A DNA stretch of 58,395 nt. Source: Candidatus Parcubacteria bacterium. GTDB taxonomy: Bacteria; Patescibacteriota; Minisyncoccia; SURF-38. A program made the translations under genes and the position numbers. Under the pieces are notes generated by a model. The model worked only from the letters and a program-made list of their open reading frames with translations, did not search any database and had not been told where the DNA came from. Below, piece by piece: positions 15,211-56,365 of this stretch; the stretch's first letter is position 1, and each line of letters begins with the position of its first letter. The stretch covers positions 1 to 58,395 of the forward strand of contig QZJN01000005.1 of assembly GCA_003599335.1 (NCBI GenBank). The letters run 5' to 3'.

Positions 15211-15238
15211 TTGACAAAATTATATGATTTGATATAAT
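15211..15238 (+). promoter_or_regulatory. Consensus sigma70 promoter (16-nt spacer)
   Basis: TTGACA (15211-16), 16 nt, TATAAT (15233-38). Confidence 0.8.
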
Positions 15239-15298
15239 AATAGAGGTACTATACATCTTAGTTGTTTTCCCTCTGAGTGGGGGAAGAAAGGGTAAAAA

Positions 15299-15892
15299 AT
15301 GAACACGAAGCAGAGGATGAAGCTGTATTTTTGGTTGATTGTCGGGGCGACGATTTTAATGAGCGTCGCGACACTCACTGCAAGTGCGCAAGAGAAGGTG
15401 ACCGTCAATCGACAAGCGAGGGTCGCCGTGACCTTCGAGCGTTTCTCCGGGAGTCAGGAAATTGTGGCCCGCGCTTTTCGTCAGGCCCTGCGCGAGGCTG
15501 GGTTTGAGGTTGTCTTCACCGGTCGCAATAAGACTCGCATGTCCGGGTCCGAGCGCGACTTTGAGCAACTCGGGAACGTGGACTACGTCCTCGTGATCAA
15601 CGGTTCCGAGAACACAAGGACAACTTCCGGCTCGGTCAATCTCAACCTCGGTTCGTTCCGTGGTTCCACAAGGCCCCGAGGTCAGAGCGTCTATATCTCG
15701 GGAGAGTTGGTGGACGCCACAACCCGAACCGTCGTGCGCAGTGGGGAAGCGGAAGGAGAAGCTTCGGATAGCGGCCTGAGTTTCAACATCGGCCGCCGCC
15801 GTAGCCTGGGCTACCGCAGCGATAGCAGGGAAAACCTGCGCTTCGCAGCCGCGCTTGAAGCGGCGAAAAAGCTCGTGAGCCAGCTCAAGTAA
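15299..15892 (+). CDS. Secreted hypothetical protein, possibly CsgG/TolB-N-like fold
   Basis: Signal peptide (..TLTASAQ), L.EAGFEVV, DYVLVING, ELVDATT..VV; GC-richer codons; own promoter and terminator. Confidence 0.8.
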   Translation: MNTKQRMKLYFWLIVGATILMSVATLTASAQEKVTVNRQARVAVTFERFSGSQEIVARAFRQALREAGFEVVFTGRNKTRMSGSERDFEQLGNVDYVLVINGSENTRTTSGSVNLNLGSFRGSTRPRGQSVYISGELVDATTRTVVRSGEAEGEASDSGLSFNIGRRRSLGYRSDSRENLRFAAALEAAKKLVSQLK

Positions 15893-15914
15893 GTTCCCCC
15901 GCCCCCACTCAAGG

Positions 15915-15952
15915 AAGGCCGTCGTGTGCGAAAGCATGTGGCGGCCTTTTTT
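15915..15952 (+). terminator. Intrinsic terminator
   Basis: AGGCCGTCGTGTGC-GAAA-GCATGTGGCGGCCT followed by T-run. Confidence 0.85.
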
Positions 15953-15984
15953 CTTTCCAAAAAATAGCTTATGCTTAATGCGAA

Positions 15985-16473
15985 ATGTTTGAGATTATCA
16001 CCAATAATAGCCAAAAAACGCAGGAATTAGCGGAACGCCTGGCTCAAGAAGCAGCCTCTATAAAAAGGAATGATCAAAAAGACAAAAAAGCCGTTGTCGT
16101 GGGTTTGGTTGGCGATCTCGGAGCTGGTAAGACCACTTTTGTGCAGGGTTTTGCCAGGGCTCTTGGCGTGGCCGAAAAAGTTTTAAGCCCGACATTTTTG
16201 ATAGCAAAATGTTTTCCACTGGAGTCAAAAAACCAAAAAGTTAAAAAGAATCACTTTAAGTGTTTGTATCATATAGATGGATATCGCTTAAAAGATCATA
16301 AAGACCTTCTGGCTACGGGTTTTGAAGAAATTTTAAACAATGAGGAAAGTATAGTTCTCATAGAGTGGGCCGATCGTTTCAAAAAATTACTACCGCAAAA
16401 CACGATATGGGTTGTTTTTGACTGGCTTGGCGAAGAAAAAAGAAAAGTCAGCATCCAAAACACCGCGCCATGA
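15985..16473 (+). CDS. tsaE: tRNA t6A biosynthesis ATPase TsaE
   Basis: GDLGAGKTTFVQG, SPTF, LYHIDGYRL, LIEWAD. Confidence 0.97.
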   Translation: MFEIITNNSQKTQELAERLAQEAASIKRNDQKDKKAVVVGLVGDLGAGKTTFVQGFARALGVAEKVLSPTFLIAKCFPLESKNQKVKKNHFKCLYHIDGYRLKDHKDLLATGFEEILNNEESIVLIEWADRFKKLLPQNTIWVVFDWLGEEKRKVSIQNTAP

Positions 16474-19064
16474 AGAGCGAAACAAAACTTCTGATTCTTG
16501 ACGCTCACGCCCTGATTCACAGGGCATATCATGCTTTGCCACCATCTTTTGTCACAAAAAGTGGCCAGTTGGTAAATGCCGTATACGGATTTACATCTGT
16601 TTTAATAAAAACCCTTCAGGATCAAAAACCAACTCATGTTGTGGCGGCTTTTGACTCAAAGCTGCCGACTTTCAGACACGAGAAATTCAAAGCTTACAAA
16701 GCACAAAGGCCAATAACGGCCGCAGATTTAACATCCCAAATCCCTTTAACAAAAAAGGTTCTCGAAGCTTTTGGCGTTCCAATTCTTGAGGCGCCGGGCT
16801 TTGAGGCCGATGATATTATAGGCGCTTTGGTTGAAAAATTTTTTGGCAAGGCCAAAATTTTAATAGTTACGGGAGATTTAGATGCTCTGCAACTTGTCAA
16901 AGATGGAGTGGAAGTTCTTACCTTTAAAAAAGGAGTTTCAGATGTTTTTATTTATGATAAAAAAGCCGTTTTTGACCGTTTTGGTTTAGAGCCTAAACAA
17001 TTGATAGATTTTAAGGCTCTTAAGGGGGATCCTTCCGATAACATTCCCGGCGTTCCTGGGATTGGAGAAAAAACAGCTTCAACGCTTCTTCAAAAATTCA
17101 AAACTATTGAAAAAATTTATGAGACAATAGAGATTCAAAATAGCGACATAAAGGATTCTCTAAAAAATAAATTAAAAGAAAATAAAGAGGTGGCTTTTTC
17201 AAGCAGAGATTTGGTCGTTTTAAAAACAGATATACCTCTTAAGGTCGAGCTTAAAGACACTGTTTTTGGGGGTCTTCAGCCAAACGAAAAAATTGAATCG
17301 CTATTCCAAGAATTCGGGTTTTTCAGTCTTTTTGAGAGACTTAATAAAAGCCAAACCAAATTCTCCAAAGAAGATGATGAGACTACACTCGGTTCAAAGA
17401 ACCAGAGTAATAAAACACGAATTTTTACTGAGGAAATCTACAAGAAGACCAAAAGGGTCCTAGTAGGCGTTTTAGAGGATGGAAGGTTTTTTATTTCCGC
17501 CAGCCCGGATGAACATTTTACTTTTGTTTTTTCTGGACTTGGCAAGATTAAAGATGTTCTCGAAAACAAAGAAGTTGAAAAGATAGGATACGATCTTAAA
17601 AAAACAAAACACGCTCTTATTAAAGAAGGAATCAATCTCGGTGGAAATTGTTTTGATGTGATGATAGCGGCTTATCTCTTGCATCCCGGGCGAAGGGATT
17701 ATCCTCTGGAAAGAATAGTTTTTCAGGAATTACGAAGACCACCCAATTCTTTGAAGTTACCCCAAGTTTTGGTTTTGGCCCTTTGGGAAATCTATGAAAG
17801 ACAATTAAAAAAACTTGAAGAAAACGATCTTAAAAAAGTCTTTTTTGAGATAGAAATGCCTTTAATTGATGTCCTTGTCAGAATGGAGGGGTGGGGAATT
17901 AAAGTTGAACTCTCGGATCTTAAAAAATTATCAAAAAAACTTAAATCACAACTCGATTTACTTGAGAATAAAATTCATAAAATCGCCGGTACCAAATTTA
18001 ATATCAATTCTCCGGCGCAACTTAGCGATATATTATTTAACAAATTAAGGATAGAAACAAAGGGTCTGCGCAAAACTCCCGGTGGCGTTATTTCCACCCA
18101 AGCCTCGGAACTTTCTAAATTGAGTCCAAACCCATTCATCGATTTGGTACTCGAATATCGGGAACTTTCTAAATTAAAAACCACTTATATTGATGCGCTA
18201 CCAAAGTTGGTGGATGTTGCAACCGGCAGGCTCCACACAAGTTTCGTTCAGACCGGCACGGCCACTGGCAGGCTTTCTTCAGAAGAGCCAAATTTACAAA
18301 ATATTCCAATCCGTTCTGAAGCGGCCCAAGACATACGAAGGGCTTTTATAGCCGAAAAAGGTTATGAGTTGGTTTCTTTTGATTACTCTCAAATAGAGCT
18401 TCGTCTGGCGGCGGCTTTCAGCCAAGACGAAAAGATGCTTGAAGCTTTTCGTTTGGGACAGGACATACACGCTCTCACGGCAGCCGAGGTTAACGGAATT
18501 CCGATAGAGAAAGTTGATGAAGAAATGCGCAGGCAGGCCAAGGTTTTAAACTTCGGTATTTTATACGGCATGGGAGCAAACGCCTTCGCGCAATCAGCCG
18601 GAGTTTCTAAAGAAAGAGCCAGAGAGTTTATTGATGAATATTTTAAAAAATTTGCAGGCGTTGCCCGTTATATAGAAGAGATAAAAGATCAGGCCCGCCA
18701 GCTTGGCTTTGTAAGGACAATAACAGGGAGGCGTCGTTATATTCCCGAAATTCACGCCCAGCATCAGATGGTTCGCTCTCAAGCCGAAAGAATTGCCGTT
18801 AATATGCCCATTCAAGGTTCCGACGCCGATATAAGCAAGATGAGCATGGTGGCTGTAGACAGAAAATTCTCCAACAGCAAAGATGTCAGGATGCTTCTTC
18901 AAATACACGACGCGCTGCTTTTTGAAATAAGCAAATCAAAAATTAAAGAAGTTGTTCCGGAAATAAAATCAATCATGGAGGGAATAATAAAGCTGCCGGT
19001 TGCCTTGAGGGTCGATGTTAAATCGGGTCCAAATTGGGGGGATGCTAAGCCATATAAAATCTGA
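16470..19064 (+). CDS. polA: DNA polymerase I
   Basis: 5'-3' exo (EADDIIG, TGDLD, GDPSDNIPGVPGIGEKTA); polymerase motifs DYSQIELR, AKVLNFGILYG, LLQIHDAL. Confidence 0.99.
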   Translation: MKSETKLLILDAHALIHRAYHALPPSFVTKSGQLVNAVYGFTSVLIKTLQDQKPTHVVAAFDSKLPTFRHEKFKAYKAQRPITAADLTSQIPLTKKVLEAFGVPILEAPGFEADDIIGALVEKFFGKAKILIVTGDLDALQLVKDGVEVLTFKKGVSDVFIYDKKAVFDRFGLEPKQLIDFKALKGDPSDNIPGVPGIGEKTASTLLQKFKTIEKIYETIEIQNSDIKDSLKNKLKENKEVAFSSRDLVVLKTDIPLKVELKDTVFGGLQPNEKIESLFQEFGFFSLFERLNKSQTKFSKEDDETTLGSKNQSNKTRIFTEEIYKKTKRVLVGVLEDGRFFISASPDEHFTFVFSGLGKIKDVLENKEVEKIGYDLKKTKHALIKEGINLGGNCFDVMIAAYLLHPGRRDYPLERIVFQELRRPPNSLKLPQVLVLALWEIYERQLKKLEENDLKKVFFEIEMPLIDVLVRMEGWGIKVELSDLKKLSKKLKSQLDLLENKIHKIAGTKFNINSPAQLSDILFNKLRIETKGLRKTPGGVISTQASELSKLSPNPFIDLVLEYRELSKLKTTYIDALPKLVDVATGRLHTSFVQTGTATGRLSSEEPNLQNIPIRSEAAQDIRRAFIAEKGYELVSFDYSQIELRLAAAFSQDEKMLEAFRLGQDIHALTAAEVNGIPIEKVDEEMRRQAKVLNFGILYGMGANAFAQSAGVSKERAREFIDEYFKKFAGVARYIEEIKDQARQLGFVRTITGRRRYIPEIHAQHQMVRSQAERIAVNMPIQGSDADISKMSMVAVDRKFSNSKDVRMLLQIHDALLFEISKSKIKEVVPEIKSIMEGIIKLPVALRVDVKSGPNWGDAKPYKI

Positions 19065-19069
19065 AATTT

Positions 19070-19990
19070 ATGCCAGAGCTTCCAGAGGTAGAAACTGTTG
19101 TTAGGGGTCTTAATAGAAAAGTCAGGGGATTGAAAATTAAAGATGTTTGGTCGGATTGGCCAAAATATTTTAAGCCTCACCTCTCGCTTTTTAAGTTTAA
19201 GAAACACGTCGTTGGTAAAAAAATAAACATAGTTCATCGAAGGGGAAAAAATATATTATTTAACCTCTCCGACGGGCATGTTCTTTTGATTCATCAAAAA
19301 ATGACAGGGCATTTACTGATTGGGAATTGGATTTACAATCCTAAAGGAGACGGTCGGACAAGAACTTCCGGATTTTGGCGACCTGTATCTCACGGTCCTC
19401 TTCAAGATCCAAGGAACGATTTTATTCATCTGATGTTTTTTTTAAACAACGGAAGACAACTTGCCCTTTCCGACGCTCGTAAGTTTGCAAAGGTTCTTTG
19501 TGGTCCAAGAGAAGAAATTTTTGGCAAGAAAGACATTTCTTCTTTGGGGCCGGAGCCTTTAGATGCCGGTTTCGCTTTTGAAAAATTCAAAGATCTTTTT
19601 AAAAATAAAAAAGGTAGGATCAAACAGGTTATAATGGATCAGAATTTTATTGTCGGTATCGGCAACATCTATTCCGACGATATTTTGTATTCAGCCAAGG
19701 TTCATCCTTTGAGTCGGGTTGAAAATCTGCCCGACAGTATCTTGAAAAAAATCTATAAAGCCACAAGGACTATCTTACAGAAGGCCATAAGACTTGGAGG
19801 CACAAGCATTGATGATTTCAGAAATATTGATGGTAAAAAGGGTTATTATGATAAGGCCAGACTTGTTTATCAGAAAGAAAAATGCCCAAAGGGTCATTTC
19901 ATAAAACGCATAAGGGTTGGCGGACGCACTGCAAGTTTTTGCTCCAAAGAACAAAGAATTTACAAAGGGCTCACGAAAAGTAAAAATTAA
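19070..19990 (+). CDS. mutM: Formamidopyrimidine-DNA glycosylase (Fpg/MutM)
   Basis: MPELPEVET, RRGKN, H.KMTG, GIGNIYSDDIL (H2TH); atypical C-terminal finger. Confidence 0.97.
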   Translation: MPELPEVETVVRGLNRKVRGLKIKDVWSDWPKYFKPHLSLFKFKKHVVGKKINIVHRRGKNILFNLSDGHVLLIHQKMTGHLLIGNWIYNPKGDGRTRTSGFWRPVSHGPLQDPRNDFIHLMFFLNNGRQLALSDARKFAKVLCGPREEIFGKKDISSLGPEPLDAGFAFEKFKDLFKNKKGRIKQVIMDQNFIVGIGNIYSDDILYSAKVHPLSRVENLPDSILKKIYKATRTILQKAIRLGGTSIDDFRNIDGKKGYYDKARLVYQKEKCPKGHFIKRIRVGGRTASFCSKEQRIYKGLTKSKN

Positions 19991-20100
19991 AGTAGGCCGT
20001 TTGAAATGCGACAAATAAAATTTTAAAAAGTTTATTAATATAAAAACAAAAGGATGGCGCTTGAAATGCAAGGAGTAAATTTTTACAAAAAATTTACAGA
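19981..20100. repeat. Degenerate 60-bp tandem duplication
   Basis: 19981-20040 vs 20041-20100 match at 41/60 positions by hand count; shared core TTGAAATGC at 20001 and 20061. Confidence 0.5.
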
Positions 20101-20121
20101 GCATATAAACATTATAAAGCT

Positions 20122-21102
20122 ATGATTTTTTTCGTTTGGGGCACCGATTCATATTTGATAAGAGAACAACTTAATCATTGGGTTGGACAATATAAGGCAA
20201 AAAATCCGTCCGGTTTTAGTGTTTCTAGATTTGACCAGAAAAATTTTGAGCCGGACGAATTTAGGTTGAGAGTTTCGGCCGTATCTATGTTTGGCGAAAA
20301 AAAGCTGATAATTTTTTCGGATGTTTTAAATAAAAAAGATTTTACCGATAAAATTTTTGAAATGCTAAGGAGATCGACAGCAGTGGAAAAAACAAACGAA
20401 GAGGTCTTTGTAATTTTCAGCGAGTACACAGAACCAACGGGAGATAAGCGTGAAGATACCAAAAAAAGAGAAATTTTTGTAAAAGAAGATCATGTTGCCT
20501 TTCTTCTCAAAAAAGCTTATAAGTCTGTGGAAGTTGAGCCTTTGCTCGGGGCCAGATTACAAAATTGGATCCTCAAAGAATTCACCAACCGCTCGGTAAA
20601 AGCCGATCAGGGGGTTATAAAATTTATGACCGAGAATCTTCCAAACGACCTTTGGTTTTTAAGCCAGGAGATAGAAAAGTTGTCTCTTTATAGTAGTAAA
20701 ATTACCTTAGGGATTTTGGCAGAAATTACGCCAGAGCATGTCTCACCCGATATTTTCAGGACGATAGATGCCTTAGCCTCACGGGATAAAAGGTTAGCTC
20801 TTAAGCTTTTGCATCAGCACTTGCAGAAGGGCGATCAGGCGATGCAGCTTTTAACGATGCTTGTGTTTCAGTTTCGAAATATATATCTCATAAAAAAATA
20901 TTCCGAGTCTAAAACGGCGATACCAAAAAACTTGGGAATGCATCCTTTTGTTCAGCAAAAGGCAAAAAATCAAGGCAAAAATTTCTCTCTTTCCGAGCTT
21001 GAGAAAATATATCAGAAACTTTTTGAAACAGACTTGGCTATAAAAACAGGACAACTTGAGCCGGAAACAGCGCTGGATCTATTTGTAACAACGGCCTGCT
21101 GA
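20122..21102 (+). CDS. holA: DNA polymerase III delta subunit
   Basis: FFVWGTDSYLI, SMFGEKKLII, L.QEIEKLSLY, DIFRTIDAL, GMHPFV.QKA, DLAIKTG. Confidence 0.92.
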   Translation: MIFFVWGTDSYLIREQLNHWVGQYKAKNPSGFSVSRFDQKNFEPDEFRLRVSAVSMFGEKKLIIFSDVLNKKDFTDKIFEMLRRSTAVEKTNEEVFVIFSEYTEPTGDKREDTKKREIFVKEDHVAFLLKKAYKSVEVEPLLGARLQNWILKEFTNRSVKADQGVIKFMTENLPNDLWFLSQEIEKLSLYSSKITLGILAEITPEHVSPDIFRTIDALASRDKRLALKLLHQHLQKGDQAMQLLTMLVFQFRNIYLIKKYSESKTAIPKNLGMHPFVQQKAKNQGKNFSLSELEKIYQKLFETDLAIKTGQLEPETALDLFVTTAC

Positions 21103-22089
21103 TTATTTTTGGATAAAAGAGGAGTTTTGGATAATCCAATCTATGGGTAGGGCCTCGGCAAATTCTCCGGATTTTCCAGCAAAAGCCAAACCAATAAGTT
21201 CGTTGTAAACATTCAAAACGGCAGATCCGGAAAAGCCCTTTTCAATCGGGGCTGAAGCTCTAAGAAGAACCGAAGAAAAAGCGTCAATCAACCCGCTTAT
21301 TCTGTTGAGCGTGAGGCTTGAAAAAAATTCAGCAGGAAAACCGGCGATCATAACCCAATCGTTTTTGATGACGATCTTTGATTGACCGATTGGTATTGCT
21401 TCAAAAGATTCTGGCAGGCTTTTGTCGTATTTTTCGCAAAGGCTTTTTGCCCCAGGATATAAGAGAAAACATTCTTTTTGACCATAGATCAACCTGTCGA
21501 TTTTTAGGAAAGCAAAATCATAATAAGGATTCATTTTGGTCGGTTCTTGTATTTGGGTTGTTGTTGCCGACCACAACAATGATGCTTGGTAGAGGTGTTC
21601 GGCCGGTTGGTTGAAATCTTTTGCAACTTTTACGTCGCAATATTTTGTTTTGTTGGTTTGTGAAGAATCTGTCCAGTCGGCCTCTATTTTTGTCGCTACA
21701 TGACGATTGGTCAAGATAATTCCTTTTTCCTTTACTATCACCCCCGATCCTCTTGTTACAAAACCACCTTTTTCGAAATGACAATCCAGGCTCACAAAAG
21801 CAAGAGGGCTAAGAGGTTTTATATTTTTTTCTATTTTTGGAGAGATTGTTGTTTGTGGGGTTGGAGCATCTTCAATAGGGGCGGTTTTATTGATTGTCGG
21901 AGTGTCTTTTATCTTTTCGTTTGAAGGTTGGTTTTGAGGCTCGGATTGCCGGAGTTTTTCTTCAGGCAGGACTTCTTGTTTTTCATTAAAGATAGAACTT
22001 TTTAAAAATAAAGACTCCATATCATTAAGGGAAAATAGTAAACCCATCCAGACAAGAACAGCAAAAAGAGCTATGTAGATAAGTTTCAT
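21103..22089 (-). CDS. Membrane-anchored trypsin-like serine protease
   Basis: GSGVIV....ILTNRHV (His), DFAFLKI (Asp), GFSGSAV (Ser); ATG at 22089 in TAATG overlap with upstream gene. Confidence 0.85.
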   Translation of the reverse strand: MKLIYIALFAVLVWMGLLFSLNDMESLFLKSSIFNEKQEVLPEEKLRQSEPQNQPSNEKIKDTPTINKTAPIEDAPTPQTTISPKIEKNIKPLSPLAFVSLDCHFEKGGFVTRGSGVIVKEKGIILTNRHVATKIEADWTDSSQTNKTKYCDVKVAKDFNQPAEHLYQASLLWSATTTQIQEPTKMNPYYDFAFLKIDRLIYGQKECFLLYPGAKSLCEKYDKSLPESFEAIPIGQSKIVIKNDWVMIAGFPAEFFSSLTLNRISGLIDAFSSVLLRASAPIEKGFSGSAVLNVYNELIGLAFAGKSGEFAEALPIDWIIQNSSFIQK

Positions 22090-22796
22090 TATTTGAATAT
22101 TTTTATCAGCCAATCAACAATTTCGTTTTCCAGATCTTTTTCTTTTATGAGCATATCTGTTCCATGCCCGACGTTTTTGAACAGTTTTGTTTGTTTTTGG
22201 GCTTTCGTCTTTTCCGATAAAATTTTTACCGACGAAAAAGAATAGGAATCTTCCTGGGAAGCAGCCAAGAGCAAAAATTGTTTTTGAGTAAGCTTTGAAA
22301 TGGCAGCCTCTATTTCTATGCCTTTATAATCTAAACCAGGAGATAAAGCGACGATTGCTTTTATGTCTGGGTTGTGGGCGGCATAATCTATGGCTAAATT
22401 AGCCCCAACAGAAGCCCCTATTAGAACAATCTTTTCTTTTGTAAAACCAATGTCTTTGAGGAATTTAATTGCCCCTAAAACATCAAGGCGGGAGAGTTGG
22501 TGTTCCTGATCAACAAATTTATTGTAGTTTAAGGGTCCTTTGGTTGAATTGGTTGATTCTCCATGACCCCGAAGATCAGTCGCCAGACAATAAAAACCAA
22601 CCTTGGTAAGTTTTTCGGCCAAAGATTTCCAGGAGGTTTTGTCCGAAGGCATCATGTGTAACATCAGGATAGCCTTTTTAATCCCAGGCTGGTCGGTCTT
22701 TGGTCGTTCGTTTTTCCCCTGGCTTTGGGTTTCTGGTTGATACCAATCGGCGACAATCTTAACGCCATCTTCGGTTTGAAAAGTTATTTTTTCCAT
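22089..22796 (-). CDS. Alpha/beta-fold hydrolase
   Basis: DLRGHGES, IGASVGAN nucleophile elbow, D and GHG; ATG MEKITFQTEDG at 22796. Confidence 0.9.
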   Translation of the reverse strand: MEKITFQTEDGVKIVADWYQPETQSQGKNERPKTDQPGIKKAILMLHMMPSDKTSWKSLAEKLTKVGFYCLATDLRGHGESTNSTKGPLNYNKFVDQEHQLSRLDVLGAIKFLKDIGFTKEKIVLIGASVGANLAIDYAAHNPDIKAIVALSPGLDYKGIEIEAAISKLTQKQFLLLAASQEDSYSFSSVKILSEKTKAQKQTKLFKNVGHGTDMLIKEKDLENEIVDWLIKIFK

Positions 22797-48510: not shown

Positions 48511-48575
48511 GCTGTTTTATTTGCAGGCTTTAATAAATAATGTTTATACTCTGGGCAGATCCAAGGAGGTGGGCC

Positions 48576-48848: not shown

Positions 48849-48857
48849 CCTCTGTTT

Positions 48858-48885
48858 TTGACAGGAAGAATAACCCAGCTATACT
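48858..48885 (+). promoter_or_regulatory. Near-consensus sigma70 promoter (16-nt spacer)
   Basis: TTGACA (48858-63), 16 nt, TATACT (48880-85). Confidence 0.8.
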
Positions 48886-48905
48886 TTTGGCAAGGAGGAA
48901 ACACC

Positions 48906-49289: not shown

Positions 49290-49307
49290 AGATTCTGCAA
49301 CTTTGTG

Positions 49308-49344
49308 ACTGGGGTGTGCTTACGTGCGCCCCAGTTTGTTTTTT
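49308..49344 (+). terminator. Intrinsic terminator
   Basis: ACTGGGGTGTGC-TTAC-GTGCGCCCCAGT then TTGTTTTTT. Confidence 0.85.
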
Positions 49345-49378
49345 GAAAATAATTTTTATCGTGCTATAGTTTCAAAGT

Positions 49379-50170
49379 ATGGTAAATAAAAAAATTATTT
49401 TATCAGTAATAATAGTTGCAGCTGTTTTTGTAGGCTGGCAGATTTTGAACAAACAAACAAAAGAAATGAAAAACGTTGATATGCTTTCAAATGGAGATGA
49501 GGCCTCGGTTTTAAGCGATGAAGTTTCTTATTTTGGAGGGATTAAAGGATATTTTGTAAAACCAAAAGAGAGTGGTAATTACCCCGGAGTCGTGATGATT
49601 CATGAATGGTGGGGATTAAATGAAAATATAAAACAAATGGCACGCCAGCTTGCATCGGAGGGCTACAATGTTTTAGCAGTTGATTTACATAAAGGAAAGG
49701 TGGCGGCAACGGCCGAAGAGGCCAGGGCTTTGGTTTCTTCTTTAGATCAGCAAGAGGCTTTACGCAATTTAAGGGCGGCTGTTTCTTTTCTTCGTAACCA
49801 AGATTCAACCAAAATTGCCTCTTTGGGTTGGTGTTTTGGCGGGGGGCAATCGTTGCAACTTGCCCTTTCGGGCGAAGATCTTGATGCCACGGTGATTTAT
49901 TACGGTCAGTTAATTTCGGATAAAACCCGGCTCAGTAATATCAAATGGCCAGTTTTGGGAATCTTTGGAGATAAAGATAGCTCAATTCCTGTTTCTAGCG
50001 TTTACGATTTTCGTGATGCTCTAACGTTCCTTAGTATTCCAAACGAAGTCCATATTTACCCCGGGGTTGGACATGCTTTTGCCAATCCTTCTGGCGCAAA
50101 TTACGCTCCGCAAGAAACAACGGATGCCTGGACAAAAACCCTGACTTTTTTGGCGGAAAACCTTAAATAA
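49379..50170 (+). CDS. Dienelactone hydrolase family protein
   Basis: VMIHEWWGLN, GWCFGG, IYYG, FGDKD, YPGVGHAFAN. Confidence 0.95.
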   Translation: MVNKKIILSVIIVAAVFVGWQILNKQTKEMKNVDMLSNGDEASVLSDEVSYFGGIKGYFVKPKESGNYPGVVMIHEWWGLNENIKQMARQLASEGYNVLAVDLHKGKVAATAEEARALVSSLDQQEALRNLRAAVSFLRNQDSTKIASLGWCFGGGQSLQLALSGEDLDATVIYYGQLISDKTRLSNIKWPVLGIFGDKDSSIPVSSVYDFRDALTFLSIPNEVHIYPGVGHAFANPSGANYAPQETTDAWTKTLTFLAENLK

Positions 50171-50184
50171 ATATTTTCAAAGCA

Positions 50185-50937
50185 ATGCCCAAATTTTTAA
50201 TTTACGGAGCTTTTATAGCTTTATTTTTGGGATTTATTGCTTTTGCTTATGCCTATCAGGCTCAACGTTTTACTGATACCGAGGTTGGTTTTGAAGAAAT
50301 AACCCAAACAGAAATAAATGGTCTGCCTTTGGAATTTCAAAACTGGGAAAGGCCAGAAGGCCCTTTGAGGGTTGGCGTCCAAGTTGGTCATTGGCAGCTT
50401 GAAAACGTTCCGGAAGAGTTAAGTGGTTTGAGACGAACCGCAGGTACCCAGGGCGGCGGTAAAAAAGAGTGGGAGGTTGCTTTGGCAATTGCCCAAGAAC
50501 TTCAAGCCTTGCTTGAGAGCAAGGGTGTTGTCGTTGATCTTTTGCCGGCAACAATACCGCCAAGGTATTTTGCCGATGTTTTTGTTTCAATACATGCCGA
50601 TGGCAGCACTGACACTCGGGTTTCCGGATTTAAAGCCGCGGCTCCTTGGAGGGATTATACTGGTAAATCCCAGGAGCTGGTTTCGATTTTCAACGAAGAG
50701 TATGCCAAAACTACAGGAATGAAACAGGATTCAAATATTAGTAGAAGAATGAGGGGGTATTATGCTTTTAATTGGCGAAGGTACGAACACTCTATTCATC
50801 CGATGACCGTGGCGATGATTGTTGAAACCGGTTTTTTGACTAATCCCCAAGATCAAAGGATTCTTATAAATACTCCTGAGCGTCCGGCTCAAGGAATTGC
50901 CAACACGATTTTTAAGTTTTTAGATATTAATAACTAA
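50185..50937 (+). CDS. N-acetylmuramoyl-L-alanine amidase (Amidase_3), membrane-anchored
   Basis: VQVGH, E.EV.L.IA, FVSIHADG, IVETGFLTN..D. Confidence 0.9.
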   Translation: MPKFLIYGAFIALFLGFIAFAYAYQAQRFTDTEVGFEEITQTEINGLPLEFQNWERPEGPLRVGVQVGHWQLENVPEELSGLRRTAGTQGGGKKEWEVALAIAQELQALLESKGVVVDLLPATIPPRYFADVFVSIHADGSTDTRVSGFKAAAPWRDYTGKSQELVSIFNEEYAKTTGMKQDSNISRRMRGYYAFNWRRYEHSIHPMTVAMIVETGFLTNPQDQRILINTPERPAQGIANTIFKFLDINN

Positions 50938-50952
50938 ACAAAAAAAGAAACA

Positions 50953-50981
50953 GGCGACCCTTTCATAAATTCAGGGTCGCC
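50953..50981. terminator. Hairpin terminator between convergent genes
   Basis: GGCGACCCT...AGGGTCGCC preceded by an A-run (U-tract on minus). Confidence 0.8.
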
Positions 50982-51000
50982 CGTTGGCTTTTGCCGCTGG

Positions 51001-51471
51001 TCAGGGCTGGTTGACGATGGCGAGGTTATAGAGCTTGACAAAGTGAGGATTCTGGCTCTCGTGGATGATGGCGCGGGCGCCCTCATAATCCAGATCGCCA
51101 TGAATGATCGCCACGACGAGCATCAGCGCTTCGTCCAGCAACTGGGGCAGGCCGGAGAAAGAAAATAGATACTCGCATCCTCGGATTGCCCCGCCGTACT
51201 GGCCGGCTTCCTCGTTGCGCGACTGCCAGCTTGATTTGTGTTCGCGGTTCAAAAGCAGTCGGTCTGCCTTTTCCCGCGCAAAGAGGCGGTATTTTTCCTC
51301 TTTGTCTTTTGGCACCTCGCCGACCATAAAATACTGGATCGGGTTGTGGCTCACAGGAGAAAGAAGGCAGAAGCAACCACCCCTTCTCCCGCCAAGCTCG
51401 GTTGCGAAATTGGCTTCAAGAATCGCAAGTACCATTTTGAGGGTGTCTTCGGTCTTGCCTCTGCGTTGCAC
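51001..51471 (-). CDS. Hypothetical protein, GlcG/HbpS-like fold suspected
   Basis: AAAGGAG 8 nt before GTG; FAREKA.RL, YGGAI, FSFSGLP..LDEA; TTGACA on minus at 51543-48. Confidence 0.75.
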   Translation of the reverse strand: MQRRGKTEDTLKMVLAILEANFATELGGRRGGCFCLLSPVSHNPIQYFMVGEVPKDKEEKYRLFAREKADRLLLNREHKSSWQSRNEEAGQYGGAIRGCEYLFSFSGLPQLLDEALMLVVAIIHGDLDYEGARAIIHESQNPHFVKLYNLAIVNQP

Positions 51472-51613
51472 TGCTTTGTCTCCTTTGCGGCAGAAATTAA
51501 GTCCGTAGGAACCGAAATTAAAGTAATATAATAGTATATTTTTGTCAACTTTATAATTTTACATATTTAAAGATTTGGTATATAAAGTTTGCAGAACGTC
51601 CAAGGAGGGAATC

Positions 51614-51832
51614 ATGGAAAATCCGATCAGGGAAGCAATTCTGGAGGCGCTCAAATCCTCTGAAGGTATGGAGATTGGAGAATTGCTTGCTTTAACCAAG
51701 CAATTCTCACCGGGAGATGTGAGGGCCGAGGCCTGGCGAATGATTGACCAAGGAGAGCTTGAGTTGACATCAGAGGAGAGGCTTCTCCGGCTGAAAAACG
51801 GTAGTTCCAGGCCGGCCAGCGGCGCCGCCTAA
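51614..51832 (+). CDS. Small winged-helix-like protein (72 aa)
   Basis: AAGGAGG 6 nt before ATG 51614; EAILEALKSSEGMEIGELL....SPGDVRAEAWRMIDQGELEL; TTTACA-17-TATAAA upstream. Confidence 0.75.
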   Translation: MENPIREAILEALKSSEGMEIGELLALTKQFSPGDVRAEAWRMIDQGELELTSEERLLRLKNGSSRPASGAA

Positions 51833-51849
51833 AGGATACGAACTTTTGG

Positions 51850-51884
51850 AAAGCCCGACGCTTCTTAGAGGCGGCGGGCTTTTT
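51850..51884 (+). terminator. Intrinsic terminator
   Basis: AAAGCCCG...CGGGCTTT followed by T. Confidence 0.8.
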
Positions 51885-51917
51885 CATTAGACTTAATTAA
51901 GATAAAATAAGTTATAT

Positions 51918-52556
51918 ATGAAAAGTTTTTCCATTACCTTTATTTTAAGTCTTTTAGTTTTGGTTCTTGGCTGGTTTATTTTTTGGAATTTTAGGACGCC
52001 AAAATCTGCCCTGCCCGATTTTTCCGGATGGAATACTTATGTCAGCGAAAAATTCGGATTTGAAATACAATATCCCCCCGATTGGGAAGTTCAGGAGTTC
52101 GATAACAGCCCTTATATTTACGGAGTTAATTTCTATAAACCAAGCCCAAATCTAATTTTCCCTTTAACGCATCATTCCGATGTCACCCACGTTTCTGTTT
52201 TTCCGCAAGGGATTCCGACAGAGGGTGTTTTTGGAAAATTTAAAGAATCAGCGCGTCAATATCCGATCCAAGCCAAAAACAAAATTGATTTTTTACTTGA
52301 AGACCAAAGCGTCTGGGGGATGATGAGCGCCAACTTTACTCAAAAACCGGCAAGCTGGGACGATTTTGGTTTTGTTTGGTCAGGTCTTAAGGTTGAAAAC
52401 TTAAGAGTAAAATGTTTTCGTGAAGGAAAGGAGGTTGATGCCGCCGGGTGCGATCCTTTGATGGGGGATGAGGTGGTTAGGACAGGAGTTGTTAGTGAAG
52501 AAGACAGAGAAATTGAAGAACAAATGCTTTCAACTCTACGGCTCATTAATCCTTAA
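51918..52556 (+). CDS. Membrane-anchored protein with PsbP-like domain
   Basis: N-terminal TM; W.TY....FGFEIQYPPDW; ends QMLSTLRL. Confidence 0.8.
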   Translation: MKSFSITFILSLLVLVLGWFIFWNFRTPKSALPDFSGWNTYVSEKFGFEIQYPPDWEVQEFDNSPYIYGVNFYKPSPNLIFPLTHHSDVTHVSVFPQGIPTEGVFGKFKESARQYPIQAKNKIDFLLEDQSVWGMMSANFTQKPASWDDFGFVWSGLKVENLRVKCFREGKEVDAAGCDPLMGDEVVRTGVVSEEDREIEEQMLSTLRLINP

Positions 52557-52614
52557 AGCGTTGCTTTTTAGCCAAGGTTCAATATAATAAAGGTAAAGTT
52601 GACTTTACATTGTT

Positions 52615-53106
52615 ATGAAGGATAAAAATTTAAAAACGGAAAAAGCCACTTTTGGAGCCGGTTGTTTCTGGGGGGTTGAGGATGCTTTTCATCAGTTAAA
52701 AGGGGTTGTTGACACTAAGGTTGGTTATATGGGCGGAACTTTGGAAAACCCAAGCTATGAAGAGGTTTGTACAAATACAACCGGTCATGCCGAAGTTGTT
52801 CAGGTTGAATATGACCCCAAGTCGATCTCTTACGATCAACTGCTTGAAACGTTTTGGAAAATTCACGATCCAACCCAATTTAATCGTCAGGGAGCTGATG
52901 TTGGCACGCAGTATCGTTCTGTAATTTTTTATCATACGCAAGAGCAAAAAAACTTGGCCGAAGCTTCAAAGAGCAAACTTGAAGAATCAAAAACTTACCG
53001 TAAGCAGATTGCAACCGCGATTGAACCAGCAAAAACTTTTTATAAGGCAGAAGAATATCACCAGAGATATTTTGAAAAACAAGGGATTTCGACGTGCCGG
53101 ATATAG
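52615..53106 (+). CDS. msrA: Peptide methionine sulfoxide reductase A
   Basis: [41 protein letters not shown]. Confidence 0.99.
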
Positions 53107-53168
53107 CCAAGTATTTTGTATTTAGTATTAAGTGTTATACAAAAAGAAGATAAAAAATTTTAAAAATT

Positions 53169-53564
53169 ATGGAAAGAAGTGAACAAGAGTGGAAGCAGCT
53201 TTTAACGGAAGAGCAGTACCGTGTTTTACGGGAGAAAGGGACCGAAGCTCCATTTTCCGGCAAGTATTATAAAATTAAGGATAAGGGGATGTATGTTTGC
53301 TCGGCCTGCGGTGCAGAGCTTTTTTCTTCAGATACAAAATTTGATTCTGGCACAGGCTGGCCGAGTTTTACCGAGCCGGCCAATTTTGAGAATGTTGAAC
53401 TTGAAGATGATTTTAGCCACGGCATGCATCGCACTGAAGTTAGATGTAAACGATGCGGTTCTCATCTTGGCCATGTTTTTGACGACGGGCCAGAGGAAAA
53501 AGGGGGAAAGCGTTATTGTATAAATTCTGTTTGTCTTGATCTAAAGAAAAAAAGCGATGAATAA
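53169..53564 (+). CDS. msrB: Peptide methionine sulfoxide reductase B
   Basis: [44 protein letters not shown]. Confidence 0.99.
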
Positions 53565-54210
53565 GAGGGATGTTTTTTATCTGGTTTTAACCGTTATAGT
53601 TATCGGGGTTTTTGCTTCATCGCTTTACCTGCAAACCGTTGTCTATAAATACGTTGATGTTTTGGTCAGATACATGGAGACGTATCGTATCTTTGGCATT
53701 GCCATAGTAGTTTTTGGCGCGACGCTCTCTTCTATGCTTGCGCCTTTTACAATAGCTCCCATTCTTCTTCCGCCAGCCATAGTTACCCACGGGGCTTTTA
53801 TCACCTTTTTATATTTTTTAAGCGGATGGGTTTTGGGCGGAATTATAAGTTTTTATATATCGAGGCTGTGGGGCAGGCCGGCTTTGGAGAGACTTAGATT
53901 GGCCCACAAGGTTGATTATTACGAAAAGCTTGTGCCCAGGGAGCATCATTTTTTTGTTTTGCTTTTATTCAGATTGGCCATGCCTTCAGAAATTCCCGGT
54001 TATATATTGGGACTCACTAACATCGGATTTTTAAGATATTTTTGGGCGACTCTTTTGGCAGAGATTCCTATTGGTCTGATACTCGTTTATGCCGGGGGTG
54101 CTTTTGTGGAAAAAGAATTTATAACTTTAGCGGTTTTGGTAGGCCTTGCCGTATTTATAACGGTGACAACTTTTTTGATTTTTATTCACAGGACTAAAAG
54201 ACAAAATTAG
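53557..54210 (+). CDS. VTT/DedA (TVP38/TMEM64) family membrane protein
   Basis: G.VLGG.ISF..SR.WG, LLFRL..P.EIPGY.LGLT.I.F..YF.AT. Confidence 0.9.
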
Positions 54211-54226
54211 TTGTATAATATTATTA

Positions 54227-54547
54227 ATGACTCCAAATAAAGAACTTAAGGCCGGGTTTTTTACAAGAATTTTGATTAAATTCTGGCCAGCTATGGCTGT
54301 TAAACAAATGGCTAGACAGATGGGTATAAACAACCCTTTGTTTGATAAAGCTCATTATCTTTTCACCAAAGTTAAAAGAGTTGATCTTGTTCCTCTAAAA
54401 AGTGGCTTGAGGGGTTTTATGGTCGTCCTTGATAGAAGAACGGCCTTGTATTTTTATCAGAACAATGACCATTTTGTTTACGACGGATATGAGATGGGGA
54501 TGTATAATAAAGGGGATGTTACTATTTTTGATCAAACTAAAGGATAG
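54227..54547 (+). CDS. Hypothetical protein
   Basis: 106-aa ORF co-oriented with neighbours; hairpin AGCCCCGC/GCGGGGTT at 54574-94 follows. Confidence 0.75.
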   Translation: MTPNKELKAGFFTRILIKFWPAMAVKQMARQMGINNPLFDKAHYLFTKVKRVDLVPLKSGLRGFMVVLDRRTALYFYQNNDHFVYDGYEMGMYNKGDVTIFDQTKG

Positions 54548-54596
54548 GTTTATTGTTTGAAACCAAAAATTTTAGCCCCGCACTAAGCGGGGTTTT

Positions 54597-55250
54597 ATGT
54601 TAAAATCAGTTCAAAAGATGACTTTCTTTGTAAGAAAAGCCCTTATTTTTGGGGTTGTGGGAGCAATCTTTATTTTTGGATTATATTTTCTGTTGAAAGA
54701 AGAAAAATTTATAGATAGGCCCAAGACAGGAAAAAATATAATTGTTTTTGGTGATAGTTTAGTCGAGGGCATCGGTTCTTCTCAAAATAATAATTTTGTC
54801 TCTTTATTATCCGATCGTCTTGGTCTTAATATTATTAATGCCGGTAAGAGCGGTGATACGACCGGTTCTGCTTTGGCTCGTTTAGAAACAGATGTTTTAA
54901 TGAAAAATCCGAGGGTGGTTATTGTTTTGCTCGGTGGGAACGATGCCTTAAGAAGAATTTCTCCGGAAGAAACTTTTAATAACTTGGCTTTAATTATTGA
55001 TCAAATACATTCAAGGGGCGCAGGCGTTATTTTGCTTGGGGTTAGGGGCGGTTTGTTTAAAGATAAATACGAAGACGAGTTTATTCGTTTGGTAAAAGAG
55101 AAAAAGGTTTCTTTTGTGCCGGATGTTTTGGAGGGAATTTTTGGTCATCCAGAGTTTATGTATGACGCTATACACCCAAACGATGCTGGTCATCGATTAA
55201 TAGCCGATAAAGTTGAGCCTGCTTTGCGTGCGGTTGTTGGTGATTTATAA
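54597..55250 (+). CDS. SGNH/GDSL hydrolase (arylesterase TesA-like)
   Basis: FGDSLVEG, NAG.SGDTT, LLGGND, DAIHPN..GH. Confidence 0.95.
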   Translation: MLKSVQKMTFFVRKALIFGVVGAIFIFGLYFLLKEEKFIDRPKTGKNIIVFGDSLVEGIGSSQNNNFVSLLSDRLGLNIINAGKSGDTTGSALARLETDVLMKNPRVVIVLLGGNDALRRISPEETFNNLALIIDQIHSRGAGVILLGVRGGLFKDKYEDEFIRLVKEKKVSFVPDVLEGIFGHPEFMYDAIHPNDAGHRLIADKVEPALRAVVGDL

Positions 55251-55275
55251 TTACAACATTGAAGTAAAAACTTTT

Positions 55276-55962
55276 ATGAACCCAGAATCAGGGTCAGCCC
55301 CAAGAGAAATAAAAGAGAATGCCGTTTTTGAGGCAAATCACGACCTTACATTGAGAGAGGCGGATCAAGTTTCCGAACAGCCGGTTGTGGCCGAAACAAT
55401 GCCGAGAGGACATCTCTCGTCTCTTAGAGAGCATATCTTACATTTGCCGGAGTATGAAAATTATAAAAACCAACCAATAAAATTAGAGAATTTCGATAGC
55501 GTCTTGGAAGAATTTTGGAAACATGTTGGCCAAAGTCCAAAACCGGAAGAGGTTAAGACCGGTGAGGTTTTAGATTCCCTCGTAAAAGGGATAAGGGGCG
55601 GGGTGAGCGACTATTATAAGTCTCTTTTGAGTTTACAGAGGGTCGGTAAAAAAGAGTTTTTGGTTGATAGGGAGGCTTATAAAGAAGAAACTCAATATCG
55701 CGATCAGAGAAGAAAAATCGTACACGACGCTCTGATCTCGGACCTAAAAGCTTTTCATAGATATTGTTATCAGGTTCTACCAAAGAAGTTCGGGATTTCG
55801 GTTGCAACAGAAAATTTTTTTAAAGGACCCGAGCTTAACAATAGGGATTTTATTGGAAACTGGGCTTTTGAAACAGAACAGGGTAGGAGGTTGGAAGATG
55901 CCGTGAGGGTTATAGATAGTAAACTTTCTGGTAAAAAAGAAGAAGCGGAGTCAACTCACTAA
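55276..55962 (+). CDS. Hypothetical helical protein
   Basis: ATG 55276; D.RRKIVHDALISDL....R motif; hairpin 55945-76 at the stop. Confidence 0.75.
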   Translation: MNPESGSAPREIKENAVFEANHDLTLREADQVSEQPVVAETMPRGHLSSLREHILHLPEYENYKNQPIKLENFDSVLEEFWKHVGQSPKPEEVKTGEVLDSLVKGIRGGVSDYYKSLLSLQRVGKKEFLVDREAYKEETQYRDQRRKIVHDALISDLKAFHRYCYQVLPKKFGISVATENFFKGPELNNRDFIGNWAFETEQGRRLEDAVRVIDSKLSGKKEEAESTH

Positions 55963-55981
55963 AGAGTCAACTCCGCTGGTT

Positions 55982-56293
55982 TCAGGATTTGAGCAGGGTT
56001 TGGCGGAAGAGCTTCTGGACCAGAAGTTCGGTCCAAAGGAGAAGTTGCAGATTGTCTTCCCAGGTTGGTTTCAACTCCGGAGGAAGCTTTTCCAGCTTTT
56101 CGGCGAGCAGCTTAAGCTCGGCCGAATCAGCCAGCCGCAAAGTCAGGCCTAGGCGCTCGCTGGCCGGAACTTCTGCCGATGGCCAAAGCTCGCTGATTCC
56201 GATGCAATCCCGCTTGATTTCTTCAATCAGGGGAGCAAAGAAGCCGGATTCGGCCTTAAAGAACTTGTCAAAGTTGTAGTCGGCGAAGCGCAA
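55982..56293 (-). CDS. Hypothetical protein (103 aa)
   Basis: TTG start at 56293 preceded by AAAGGGGTGAG; GC-richer codons; promoter upstream. Confidence 0.7.
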   Translation of the reverse strand: MRFADYNFDKFFKAESGFFAPLIEEIKRDCIGISELWPSAEVPASERLGLTLRLADSAELKLLAEKLEKLPPELKPTWEDNLQLLLWTELLVQKLFRQTLLKS

Positions 56294-56337
56294 GACCTCA
56301 CCCCTTTCATTAGAAGTTAGGAACAATTGCGAATTTA

Positions 56338-56365
56338 ATCTTAACATATATTAGAGTTTTGTCAA
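56338..56365 (-). promoter_or_regulatory. Extended -10 promoter (16-nt spacer)
   Basis: On minus: TTGACA (56360-65), 16 nt ending in TGT, TAAGAT (56338-43). Confidence 0.7.

Follow-up and report, generated by a model that had tools for sequence, protein, structure and literature searches.

The 58,395-bp metagenome contig QZJN01000005.1, referred to here at its full length as the window, holds two gene-expression architectures that are statistically separated from each other and that recur, more sparsely, in relatives. One of these architectures is shown by about 53 AT-rich core genes (114..58395). The other belongs to 17 single-gene units, here called cassettes, which are GC-richer, are led by a Shine-Dalgarno (SD) sequence in nearly every case and lie among the core genes between positions 15211 and 56365. 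In relatives the intergenic slots that such units occupy were filled patchily, and in one orthologous family the expression signals were conserved. With a probability that we put at roughly one half, the cassettes are a flexible, horizontally exchanged accessory class that carries portable canonical signals kept by selection.

SD Sequences and GC Content Separate Two Classes of Genes

A preliminary description of this DNA had proposed that SD-led, GC-richer cassettes are scattered among core genes without an SD, and scoring of the whole window gave a stronger separation than had been claimed. Genes were taken from a greedy open reading frame (ORF) map of the window, and their GC content at third codon positions (GC3) was bimodal, with ~53 core genes at 0.29–0.44 and 17 cassettes at 0.47–0.70; the classes were accordingly defined as GC3 ≤ 0.44 and GC3 ≥ 0.47. 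SD strength was scored as the hybridisation of positions −20 to −3 with ACCUCCUUA, an anti-SD that was assumed for the scoring. At a cut-off of dG ≤ −7, an SD was present in 16/17 GC3-high genes and 3/53 GC3-low genes (Fisher p = 6e-12), and the split persisted (16/17 versus 5/53) when each core gene was scored at the best of its alternative starts up to 40 codons away. At dG ≤ −8, sites were present in 15/17 cassettes, compared with 0.72 expected after shuffling of the upstream 40 nt of each cassette. The SD-linked start was the first start codon of the ORF in 10/17 cassettes, which indicated that starts had not been chosen for their SD and that the split was not a selection effect. Scored in this way against GC3, as the preliminary description had suggested doing, the core genes remained without SD and the GC3 of the cassettes was not host-like.

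The absence of SD from the core held for nearly all of its genes. Of the three core scores, that of yidD reflected a genuine AAGGAGAAA, and the other two were spurious, one arising from a terminator hairpin that precedes 54597 and one from an alternative start that falls in cassette 7. Only yidD (114–344, start 344) among the core genes had a good SD at the start annotated for it, and so departs from what had been described; this SD sits within the end of rnpA, and the two genes overlap by 4 nt. Among the cassettes, the described spacing was reproduced, with a spacer of 4–8 nt in 13 of them and of 11 nt at 27925. The SD before the start at 22896 also stood, although its ATG opens only a 44-aa ORF (22896–23030) and is not in the frame of ORF 22877–23086. 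Of the two G-rich motifs previously described as weaker or more distant, the one at 15299 proved to be a GGGGGAAGAAAGGG stretch with dG −8.4, and the one at 47691 (dG −2.7) was no usable SD. GC islands, as seen in 201-nt windows, matched the cassette ORFs, and the cassette promoters were AT-rich. Scans of the window for tRNAs and Rfam families gave no match, indicating that known structured RNAs do not account for the GC islands.

Promoters, Start Classes and Terminators

Most cassettes had been credited with a TTGAC-type promoter and a hairpin terminator of their own, and both were found. The window has 25 TTGACA hexamers. In nine cases a cassette start followed 48–88 nt downstream, and a −10 box was found at a spacing of 16–17 nt. 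All of the intergenic copies (7/7) were among these nine, and two of the cassette TTGACA promoters were perfect (12/12). The total number of promoter-like sites in the window was not above that in shuffled sequence, and the informative features were only the position of TTGACA and the spacing between −10 box and start. For strong promoter matches, the end of the −10 box was 5–14 nt from the start in 7/12 core genes versus 20–91 nt in 11/11 cassettes. GC-rich hairpins, mostly with a T run, were located 3' of 15–16 of the 17 cassettes.

The core genes fell into three start classes. Twenty-three were coupled to an upstream gene on the same strand (gap of at most 15 nt, or overlap), 12 were leaderless-like, defined by a −10 box matching at least 5/6 positions and ending 4–16 nt from the start, and 18 were classed as other. 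A leaderless-like −10 box was found in 12/30 non-coupled core genes and in no cassette. All 17 cassettes belonged to the “other” class, as they were monocistronic, with none coupled and none having a start-abutting −10 box. Save for yidD and the two spurious scores, neither the 23 coupled core genes nor the 18 of the “other” class had an SD. These arrangements suggest that core transcripts may be leaderless or near-leaderless, from promoters consisting of a −10 box only, or that their translation may start by stop-start coupling in operons. The start regions (−25 to +35) of the cassettes were predicted to be more strongly folded than those of core genes (−10.9 versus −7.1 kcal/mol, p = 5e-4).

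Composition of the Cassettes

The GC-richer codons of the cassettes, reported earlier from spot counts, were evident in pooled data. GC contents at the first, second and third codon positions were.57/.42/.57 in cassettes and.49/.36/.37 in the core. Relative to the core, Arg, Pro, Trp and Cys were more frequent in the cassette proteins and Lys, Ile and Asn less frequent, and codons ending in G and in C were both raised. As all codon positions, the amino acids and both G- and C-ending codons were shifted, these genes appear to be equilibrated at ~52–55% GC rather than shaped by translational selection for codons ending in C. In their GC-normalised dinucleotide signature, the cassettes differed from the core by a delta* (x1000) of 92, compared with 32 ± 9 for random core subsets, although part of this difference may simply follow from their higher coding GC content. 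On the same scale, half-sets of the cassettes differed from each other by 49, core samples by 54, and cassettes from core by 103. The cassette halves were therefore as alike as core samples, indicating one coherent compositional class.

Recurrence of the SD-led Class in Relatives

When UvrB was scanned against GTDB, with each species represented by one genome, and against JGI (Joint Genome Institute) metagenomes, the matches were mainly to Patescibacteria (Parcubacteria/Paceibacteria-type groups and metagenome-assembled genomes (MAGs) labelled Saccharibacteria), with a best identity of ≤60%. Judged by these matches, the organism is a phylogenetically isolated Parcubacteria-type Patescibacterium of the candidate phyla radiation (CPR), and comparison of synteny was limited to distant relatives, whose loci are designated here by L and a number. 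Neither the window nor any of the relative loci fetched contained an rRNA or a 16S 3' end.

Pooled statistics were based on 64 SD-poor loci with 1133 ORFs. An SD was found in 0.7% of well-conserved genes versus 6–8% of poorly conserved ones, and SD-led genes were shorter and less conserved. Of the genes with a GC3 at least 0.15 above the locus median, 14/40 were SD-led, versus 37/1093 of the others (odds ratio 15, p = 2e-10). The best upstream promoter had a perfect TTGACA for 37% of SD-led genes versus 0/440 conserved genes. The products also resembled each other in kind, as an N-terminal hydrophobic segment was present in 45% of SD-led genes versus 18%, and 24% were small and Cys-rich versus 0–8%. 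The GC3 offset of the SD-led genes had a median of +0.04 and a range of −0.16 to +0.45, with many having no GC excess. The pattern was also seen in independent CPR-like contigs that had been retrieved by way of homologues. In L169, an SD-led orphan had a GC3 of 0.74 versus a background of 0.39, and SD-led neighbours were present in L166 and L167.

Slot Occupancy and Conservation of Signals

The preliminary description had offered a flexible pool of single-gene acquisitions as one reading of the cassettes. This reading received direct support from the slots between conserved genes, together with the poor conservation of SD-led genes. The ruvA|uvrB slot, which holds cassette 4 in the window, was empty in 37/45 relative loci. 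Occupants of the uvrB|rpsT slot were SD-led in 7/29 cases, versus the 0.7% of conserved genes. The slot upstream of tsaE-polA was variable, being empty in ~6 loci, occupied by a lipoprotein family in 5–6, and filled in L012, L042 and the window by unrelated SD-led genes whose products are secreted or Cys-rich.

The lipoprotein family (~210 aa), which had no Pfam match, was located upstream of tsaE-polA in L024, L149, L032, L040, L146 and L042. Its members have retained TTGACAAA, a −10 box at 16–17 nt and a GGAG(G) SD, amid diverged flanks and leader lengths. Conservation of the −35 box, the −10 box and the SD in such surroundings indicates that these signals are functional and under purifying selection. 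For an accessible CCUCC anti-SD in the 16S rRNA of the organism, the conserved SD of these relatives is indirect support only. The possibility that the gene at 15299 is a diverged member of this family was rejected (hhalign probability 0.1%).

Homologues of two other cassette genes were host-like elsewhere. The nearest homologue of the MltB-like gene (41% identity, L169) and those of the desaturase gene (57–62%; L162:8001-8789 and L163:8001-8774) had host-like GC3 and leaderless-type starts, and the same family can thus fall in either class. A reverse-transcriptase (RVT_1) gene, L162:8850-9986, adjoins the desaturase homologue of that locus. Relatives of the 34892 gene (cassette 6) were found at non-syntenic sites, namely recR|ychF in L166, beside the dcw cluster in L168, and beside toxin-antitoxin-like genes in L167. 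The member in L166 has the full cassette form, with promoter, SD, terminator and raised GC3; that in L167 has an SD and a GC3 at background; and that in L168 has a GC3 of 0.54 versus a background of 0.22 and only a weak SD. Across the family, GC3 was 0.54–0.69 over host backgrounds of 0.22–0.62.

Description of the Individual Cassettes

Signal peptides or N-terminal transmembrane (TM) segments were predicted for 8–10 of the 17 cassette proteins, in line with the nine described before. The cassettes had also been described as orphans, and this holds for most of them; the exceptions are the ParB-like gene at 42368, the MltB/SLT_2 gene at 46410–47177, the desaturase gene at 47691 and the gene at 34892. 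Cassettes for which no family assignment is given below had no Pfam, PHROG or NCBIfam match, and a tblastn search with all 17 products in 80 relative loci yielded a single match, a weak one to ParB.

Cassette 1 (15211..15955, plus strand) has a TTGACA-16-TATAAT promoter at 15211–15238, a leader of ~60 nt and a hairpin at ~15911–15952 followed by a T run. Its ORF, 15299–15892, encodes a 197-aa protein with a signal peptide (GC3 0.70) and no Pfam, PHROG or NCBIfam match. An 11-nt stretch of its 5' leader (15273–15283, CTGAGTGGGGG, 26 nt before the ATG) is complementary to part of the 3' untranslated region (~15905–15915) and could pair the ends of the mRNA. In searches for shared terminal inverted repeats or 5'/3' complementarity around the cassettes, this match was the only one above shuffled controls. 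Cassette 2 (22836..23075, plus) has TTGACA at 22836, the SD AAGGAGG 4 nt before the ATG at 22896, a 44-aa ORF (22896–23030) with a single TM segment, and a hairpin at 23044–23075. Cassette 3 (23568..24140, plus) has a TTGACA-16-TATAAT promoter at 23568–23595, the SD AGGAGG, an ORF at 23656–24084 (142 aa, GC3 0.66, no Pfam, PHROG or NCBIfam match) and a hairpin at 24107–24140 that lacks a T run. Cassette 4 (27637..28000, minus), in the ruvA|uvrB intergenic slot, encodes a 79-aa protein with two TM segments (27686–27925), preceded by the SD AAGGAG 11 nt upstream and followed by a hairpin at 27668–27637.

Cassette 5 (34038..34672, plus) comprises TTGACA at 34038, the SD AAGGAG, an ORF at 34110–34631 (173 aa, N-terminal TM segment) and a terminator at 34637–34672 with a 16-bp stem. 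Cassette 6 (34699..35826, plus) has a TTGACT-17-TATAAT promoter at 34699–34727, the SD AGGAGG and a terminator at 35788–35826. Its 294-aa product (34892–35776) is predicted to consist of a signal peptide, a beta ectodomain with the motif YK.DCGNRLV, a TM helix, a Pro-rich linker and a small beta domain, and its family comprises 172 clusters at 50% identity. The AlphaFold2 (AF2) model was confident for the structured parts, including the ectodomain, and a Foldseek search of the family model against the PDB gave no significant match. Cassette 7 (36709..37040, plus) has a TTGAAA-17-TATTTT promoter at 36709–36737, the SD GGAGG, a 73-aa ORF (36789–37010) and a hairpin at 37014–37040; the following core gene begins at 37045. 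Cassette 8 (39449..40513, minus) has TTGACA at 40513, the SD AAGGAGG, an ORF at 39487–40446 (319 aa, signal peptide) and a bidirectional terminator at 39474–39449. A search of 5.8 billion clustered proteins with its product matched its own cluster only.

Cassette 9 (41949..42249, minus) has TTGACA at 42249, the SD AAGGAG, an ORF at 41991–42185 (64 aa, a TM segment and a CxxC zinc-ribbon-like motif) and a terminator at 41971–41949. It is divergent to cassette 10 (42301..43902, plus), which has a TTGACG-17-TATTAT promoter at 42301–42329, the SD AGGAGG and a hairpin at 43869–43902. The divergent promoter region (42222–42328) contains GTCAAACTT twice (42245 and 42285) and a perfect 10-nt palindrome, CGTCAAACTT/AAGTTTGACG (42284–42306); these repeats overlap the −35 boxes and may be an operator or a ParB-binding site. 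The 500-aa product of cassette 10 (42368–43870) has ParB_N and HTH_ParB domains and a C-terminal part of ~300 aa without assignment. The middle part of this extension is rich in Pro, Ala and Lys, no ParA gene is nearby, and L020 has a 303-aa SD-led relative.

Cassette 11 (46393..47240, minus) has a TATAAT −10 box ending 31 nt before the start, the SD AAGGAG, an ORF at 46410–47177 (255 aa) predicted to encode an MltB-like SLT_2 lytic transglycosylase, and a terminator at 46422–46393. Cassette 12 (47613..48510, plus) has a TTGATC-16-TATCAT promoter at 47613–47640, no real SD, an ORF at 47691–48482 (263 aa, GC3 0.61) and a terminator at 48483–48510; its product is a predicted acyl-CoA delta-9 desaturase. 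CPR bacteria are generally thought to lack lipid synthesis. The occurrence of homologues with 57–62% identity in other CPR-like contigs suggests a possible role in the remodelling of acquired lipids.

Cassette 13 (48520..48848, plus) has the SD AAGGAGG 6 nt before the ATG at 48576 and a 90-aa ORF (48576–48848) with no family match. Cassette 14 (48858..49336, plus) has a TTGACA-16-TATACT promoter at 48858–48885, the SD AAGGAGG, an ORF at 48906–49289 (127 aa, GC3 0.66) and a terminator at 49307–49336. Cassette 15 (50949..51548, minus) has TTGACA at 51548, the SD AAGGAG, a GTG start, an ORF at 51001–51471 (156 aa, GC3 0.66) and a hairpin at 50985–50949 followed by a T run. Divergent to it is cassette 16 (51550..51882, plus), with the SD AAGGAGG, a 72-aa ORF (51614–51832) and a hairpin at 51850–51882. 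Cassette 17 (55944..56365, minus) has a TTGACA-16-TAAGAT promoter at 56365–56338, the SD-like AGGGGTGAGG, a TTG start at 56293, an ORF at 55982–56293 (103 aa) and a terminator at 55977–55944. An ATG at 56347 is inside the −10 region of this promoter and is therefore probably not transcribed.

The starts given in the NCBI and JGI records differ at 23608–24084, 27686–27937, 39487–40446 and 47691–48482, with products of 142 versus 158 aa, 319 versus 272 aa, and 263 versus 199 aa. This disagreement suggests that single-model gene finders mishandle the cassette class.

Core Genes and the Region beyond the Window

The window begins near oriC with rnpA, yidD, dnaA and dnaN. The other named core genes are PBP1, tyrS, ruvC, yebC, ruvB, pilB/GspE, tsaE, polA, mutM, holA, a Mur ligase gene, ruvA, uvrB, rpsT, and genes for a peptidyl-prolyl isomerase (PPIase), a Cu-ATPase, msrA and msrB. 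Names assigned in the preliminary description were backed by Pfam for T2SSE/PilB, MutM, HolA, RuvA, RuvB, S20, MsrA, MsrB, TsaE, the Mur ligase, the Cu-ATPase and others. The rpsU and prfB genes and those for bS6 and bS18 are outside the window.

The genes of the window are also recorded on a 108-kb JGI contig, which extends only past window position 1. In that extension, directly after yidC-jag and ~11 kb past the window start, is a cluster resembling a type IV secretion system (T4SS; L081:11464-20231) with T4SS_pilin, a VirB4/TraC-like DUF87 ATPase, a TraC-like and a PrgI-like protein. The GC3 of this cluster is host-like (0.34–0.41), and an SD-like motif (distal) precedes only the internal gene 16729–17379.

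Origin and Expression of the Cassettes

In the explanation that we favor, core genes would be translated by SD-independent initiation, from −35-less promoters with a start-abutting −10 box, or by stop-start coupling. Each cassette is a complete unit, with a consensus TTGACA/TATAAT promoter and a leader of ~13–85 nt, AAGGAGG 4–8 nt ahead of its start, and an intrinsic terminator behind its GC-richer ORF; it would be part of a fast-evolving gene complement and would have been inserted singly into a promoter-bearing intergenic slot between conserved core operons. The products are proteins of the envelope or secreted ones, small proteins that are orphans or rich in Cys, and, in one case each, a ParB-like protein, a transglycosylase of the MltB-like type and a desaturase. 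A leadered, structured and GC-richer mRNA would be unable to use the default SD-independent initiation, and the host RNA polymerase and, presumably, the anti-SD would read the canonical signals that the cassettes carry. As the core mode would give no route for such an insert, a newcomer would have to bring the full portable set of signals. We infer the horizontal origin, a functional SD/anti-SD pairing, leaderless core transcription and the cause of the GC enrichment from the patterns described above.

Several observations weigh against horizontal exchange. The compositional coherence of the cassettes fits one regime or source better than many donors, and the possible contribution of the GC shift to their dinucleotide difference bears on this argument as well. 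The tree of the lipoprotein family is congruent with those of PolA and UvrB, and the family is thus vertically inherited; its identities are 82, 80, 50–53 and 31–42%, versus 90, 94, 78 and 64–69% for PolA, and it evolves at about twice the rate of PolA. Lipoprotein GC3 is 0.06–0.21 above genome backgrounds of 0.26–0.55, and an excess across such backgrounds indicates, in at least one case, a maintained class-specific property and not an un-ameliorated import. Expressed as a logit, the GC3 offset appears similar for the pooled window cassettes (~0.8) and the lipoprotein (~0.7–1.0 in 4/5 lineages). No integrase, attC-like site or target duplication was found at the cassettes by repeat checks and Pfam checks of the genes, as had been noted from inspection alone. 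Scans of viral contigs with the ParB-like, MltB-like and 34892-family proteins identified no relatives, comparison of the cassettes with PHROGs gave only generic ParB families, and no donor lineage was identified, with homologous cassette families occurring only in other CPR-like genomes. The density of cassettes, ~23 per 100 genes in the window versus ~1.3 per 100 in relatives, and the judging of cassette gain and loss against distant genomes only (UvrB identity ≤60%) also count against this explanation.

A serious rival, which we regard as possible although not probable, is that the cassettes are an old, vertically inherited class of surface and host-interaction genes under group control at initiation, for example through anti-SD availability, through 30S versus 70S/leaderless initiation, or through recognition of the −35 box by a sigma factor. 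Their GC excess would then be maintained in place, either because the stability or structure of the mRNA is selected or because the loci recombine often and undergo GC-biased gene conversion. The syntenic lipoprotein gene, with its congruent tree, its retained TTGACA, −10 box and SD and its roughly constant GC3 excess, is in keeping with such a resident class, as are the single dinucleotide signature of the cassettes, the enrichment in signal-peptide, TM and small Cys-rich proteins, and the high GC3 of the 34892 family whatever the host background. However, many SD-led genes of the relatives are not raised in GC content, the same slots hold non-homologous genes across lineages, the MltB and desaturase genes change class between genomes, and most cassettes have no detectable homologues. 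The mechanism of gene-specific GC gain that a resident class would need is also hypothetical. Of the distinct regulon proposed in the preliminary description, the part that stands is a distinct gene class, marked by promoter, leader, SD, terminator and GC content; its common control belongs to this rival. Conjugative elements commonly carry ParB-like and MltB-like genes, and together with small orphans these would be typical cargo of a single mobile element (a plasmid, integrative and conjugative element or prophage of ~52–55% GC) whose remnants had been interleaved with the core by rearrangement. The coherent composition, the clustering of twelve cassettes in 34–56 kb and the T4SS-like cluster ~11 kb beyond the window start would be consistent with this origin. 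We nevertheless consider it improbable, as the cassettes are single genes split by conserved syntenic core operons (ruvA|uvrB and tsaE-polA), which would not be expected from rearrangement of an island. They also include no integrase, relaxase, replication, capsid or terminase gene, the T4SS cluster is host-like in composition and without SD, and, beside the lack of viral relatives, isolated genes of the same architecture occur in many relatives.

We attach very little credence to the cassettes being effector-like genes for expression in the bacterial host of this symbiont after transfer of DNA or mRNA. The evidence that would favor it is circumstantial: the signals follow the generic consensus of bacteria and not the style of this genome, and a T4SS-like cluster is nearby. 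Nothing beyond such generic signals was found for the earlier suggestion that these genes are built for host ribosomes. The products of about half of them have signal peptides or TM segments, as fits the envelope of the symbiont itself; MltB, desaturase and ParB have ordinary cell-autonomous functions; the stable inheritance of an orthologous family with conserved signals indicates use by its carrier; and nothing points to transfer. An artefact, whether chimeric assembly, contamination or chance ORFs in GC-rich non-coding DNA, is the least credible explanation, although GC-rich segments do yield shadow ORFs on the opposite strand (e.g., 15356–15937). The islands are 0.2–1.5 kb long and flanked on both sides by core sequence in one contig, and the same genes are present on the 108-kb JGI contig. 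Each ORF is in register with its promoter, SD, start codon and terminator, and the order GC3 > GC1 > GC2 is a coding pattern. In addition, three cassettes have Pfam matches, a fourth belongs to the 172-cluster family, and the AF2 model of the structured parts of the 34892 protein is confident.

Comparison with Known Systems

The horizontally exchanged class that we favor shares features with several known systems. The “group C” genomes of GeneMarkS-2 (e.g., Actinobacteria and Deinococcus) combine leaderless and SD-led initiation, and the same work treats “atypical genes” (PMC6028130). In group C, a Pribnow box lies ~6–10 nt from the start of operon-first genes, and a second, leadered set has a canonical SD; both traits have counterparts in the window. 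However, leadered or operon-internal housekeeping genes of group C use an SD, whereas the internal core genes here are coupled and have none, and SD is confined here to a compositionally distinct, monocistronic accessory class with a consensus −35 box. The cassettes resemble horizontally transferred atypical genes and flexible islets in their deviant GC content and dinucleotides, their patchy occurrence and their position between syntenic genes. Unlike islets, they are single-gene, dense (17 in 41 kb), GC-richer than the host and uniform in architecture, they have no mobility genes or repeats, and one family is vertically inherited in relatives yet atypical. Like phage morons, they are self-contained promoter-gene-terminator units of deviant composition within a conserved backbone, but this backbone is the chromosome by oriC, with no phage genes, no PHROG matches save the ParB domain, and no viral relatives.

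Bacteroidia have SD-blind ribosomes, in which bS21, bS18 and bS6 sequester the anti-SD, and reserve the SD for autoregulation of rpsU and prfB (PMC7797042, PMC9976891). The window resembles this system in being mostly without SD and having a small minority of genes with strong, possibly conditional SDs. The analogy with Bacteroidetes drawn in the preliminary description is nonetheless a poor fit, as SD is found here on accessory surface and orphan genes and not on rpsU or prfB, and the core is probably leaderless or coupled rather than A-rich-leadered. Integron cassettes are likewise single-gene, often orphan, mobile-looking units; those of the window differ in having no attC, integrase or common Pc promoter, and in being dispersed on both strands, each with its own promoter and terminator. 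None of group C, islets, morons and Bacteroidia fits the cassettes fully, and our literature search found no account of SD/leaderless partitioning in Patescibacteria.

Implications for the Patescibacteria

Patescibacteria make up a large share of bacterial diversity and have tiny genomes, few recognisable regulators and lineage-specific genes that mostly have no known function. If the cassette architecture marks flexible surface and accessory genes, it would allow candidate host-interaction genes to be picked out cheaply from thousands of MAGs. Gene calling and start-site prediction would need two models for these genomes, as the differing NCBI and JGI starts illustrate. If imported genes keep donor-type signals, the window would be a clean case of a default initiation mode filtering which foreign genes can be expressed. 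The GC excess of a vertically inherited SD-led gene bears on the debate over selection, biased gene conversion and amelioration, and the two architectures open the question of how these cells partition or regulate translation initiation.

We speculate, while considering it unlikely, that Parcubacteria-type Patescibacteria have two separable expression systems. One, leaderless or coupled and independent of −35 box and SD, would serve the minimal core, and a canonical one with −35 box, 5' untranslated region and SD would be used for surface, secreted and small orphan proteins, whose genes would be held at higher GC by a class-specific force. If this speculation is correct, a cell could switch its host-interaction repertoire at initiation, through 30S versus 70S initiation or anti-SD availability, and “SD plus TTGACA” would be a flag, readable from sequence only, for host-interaction genes across the radiation.

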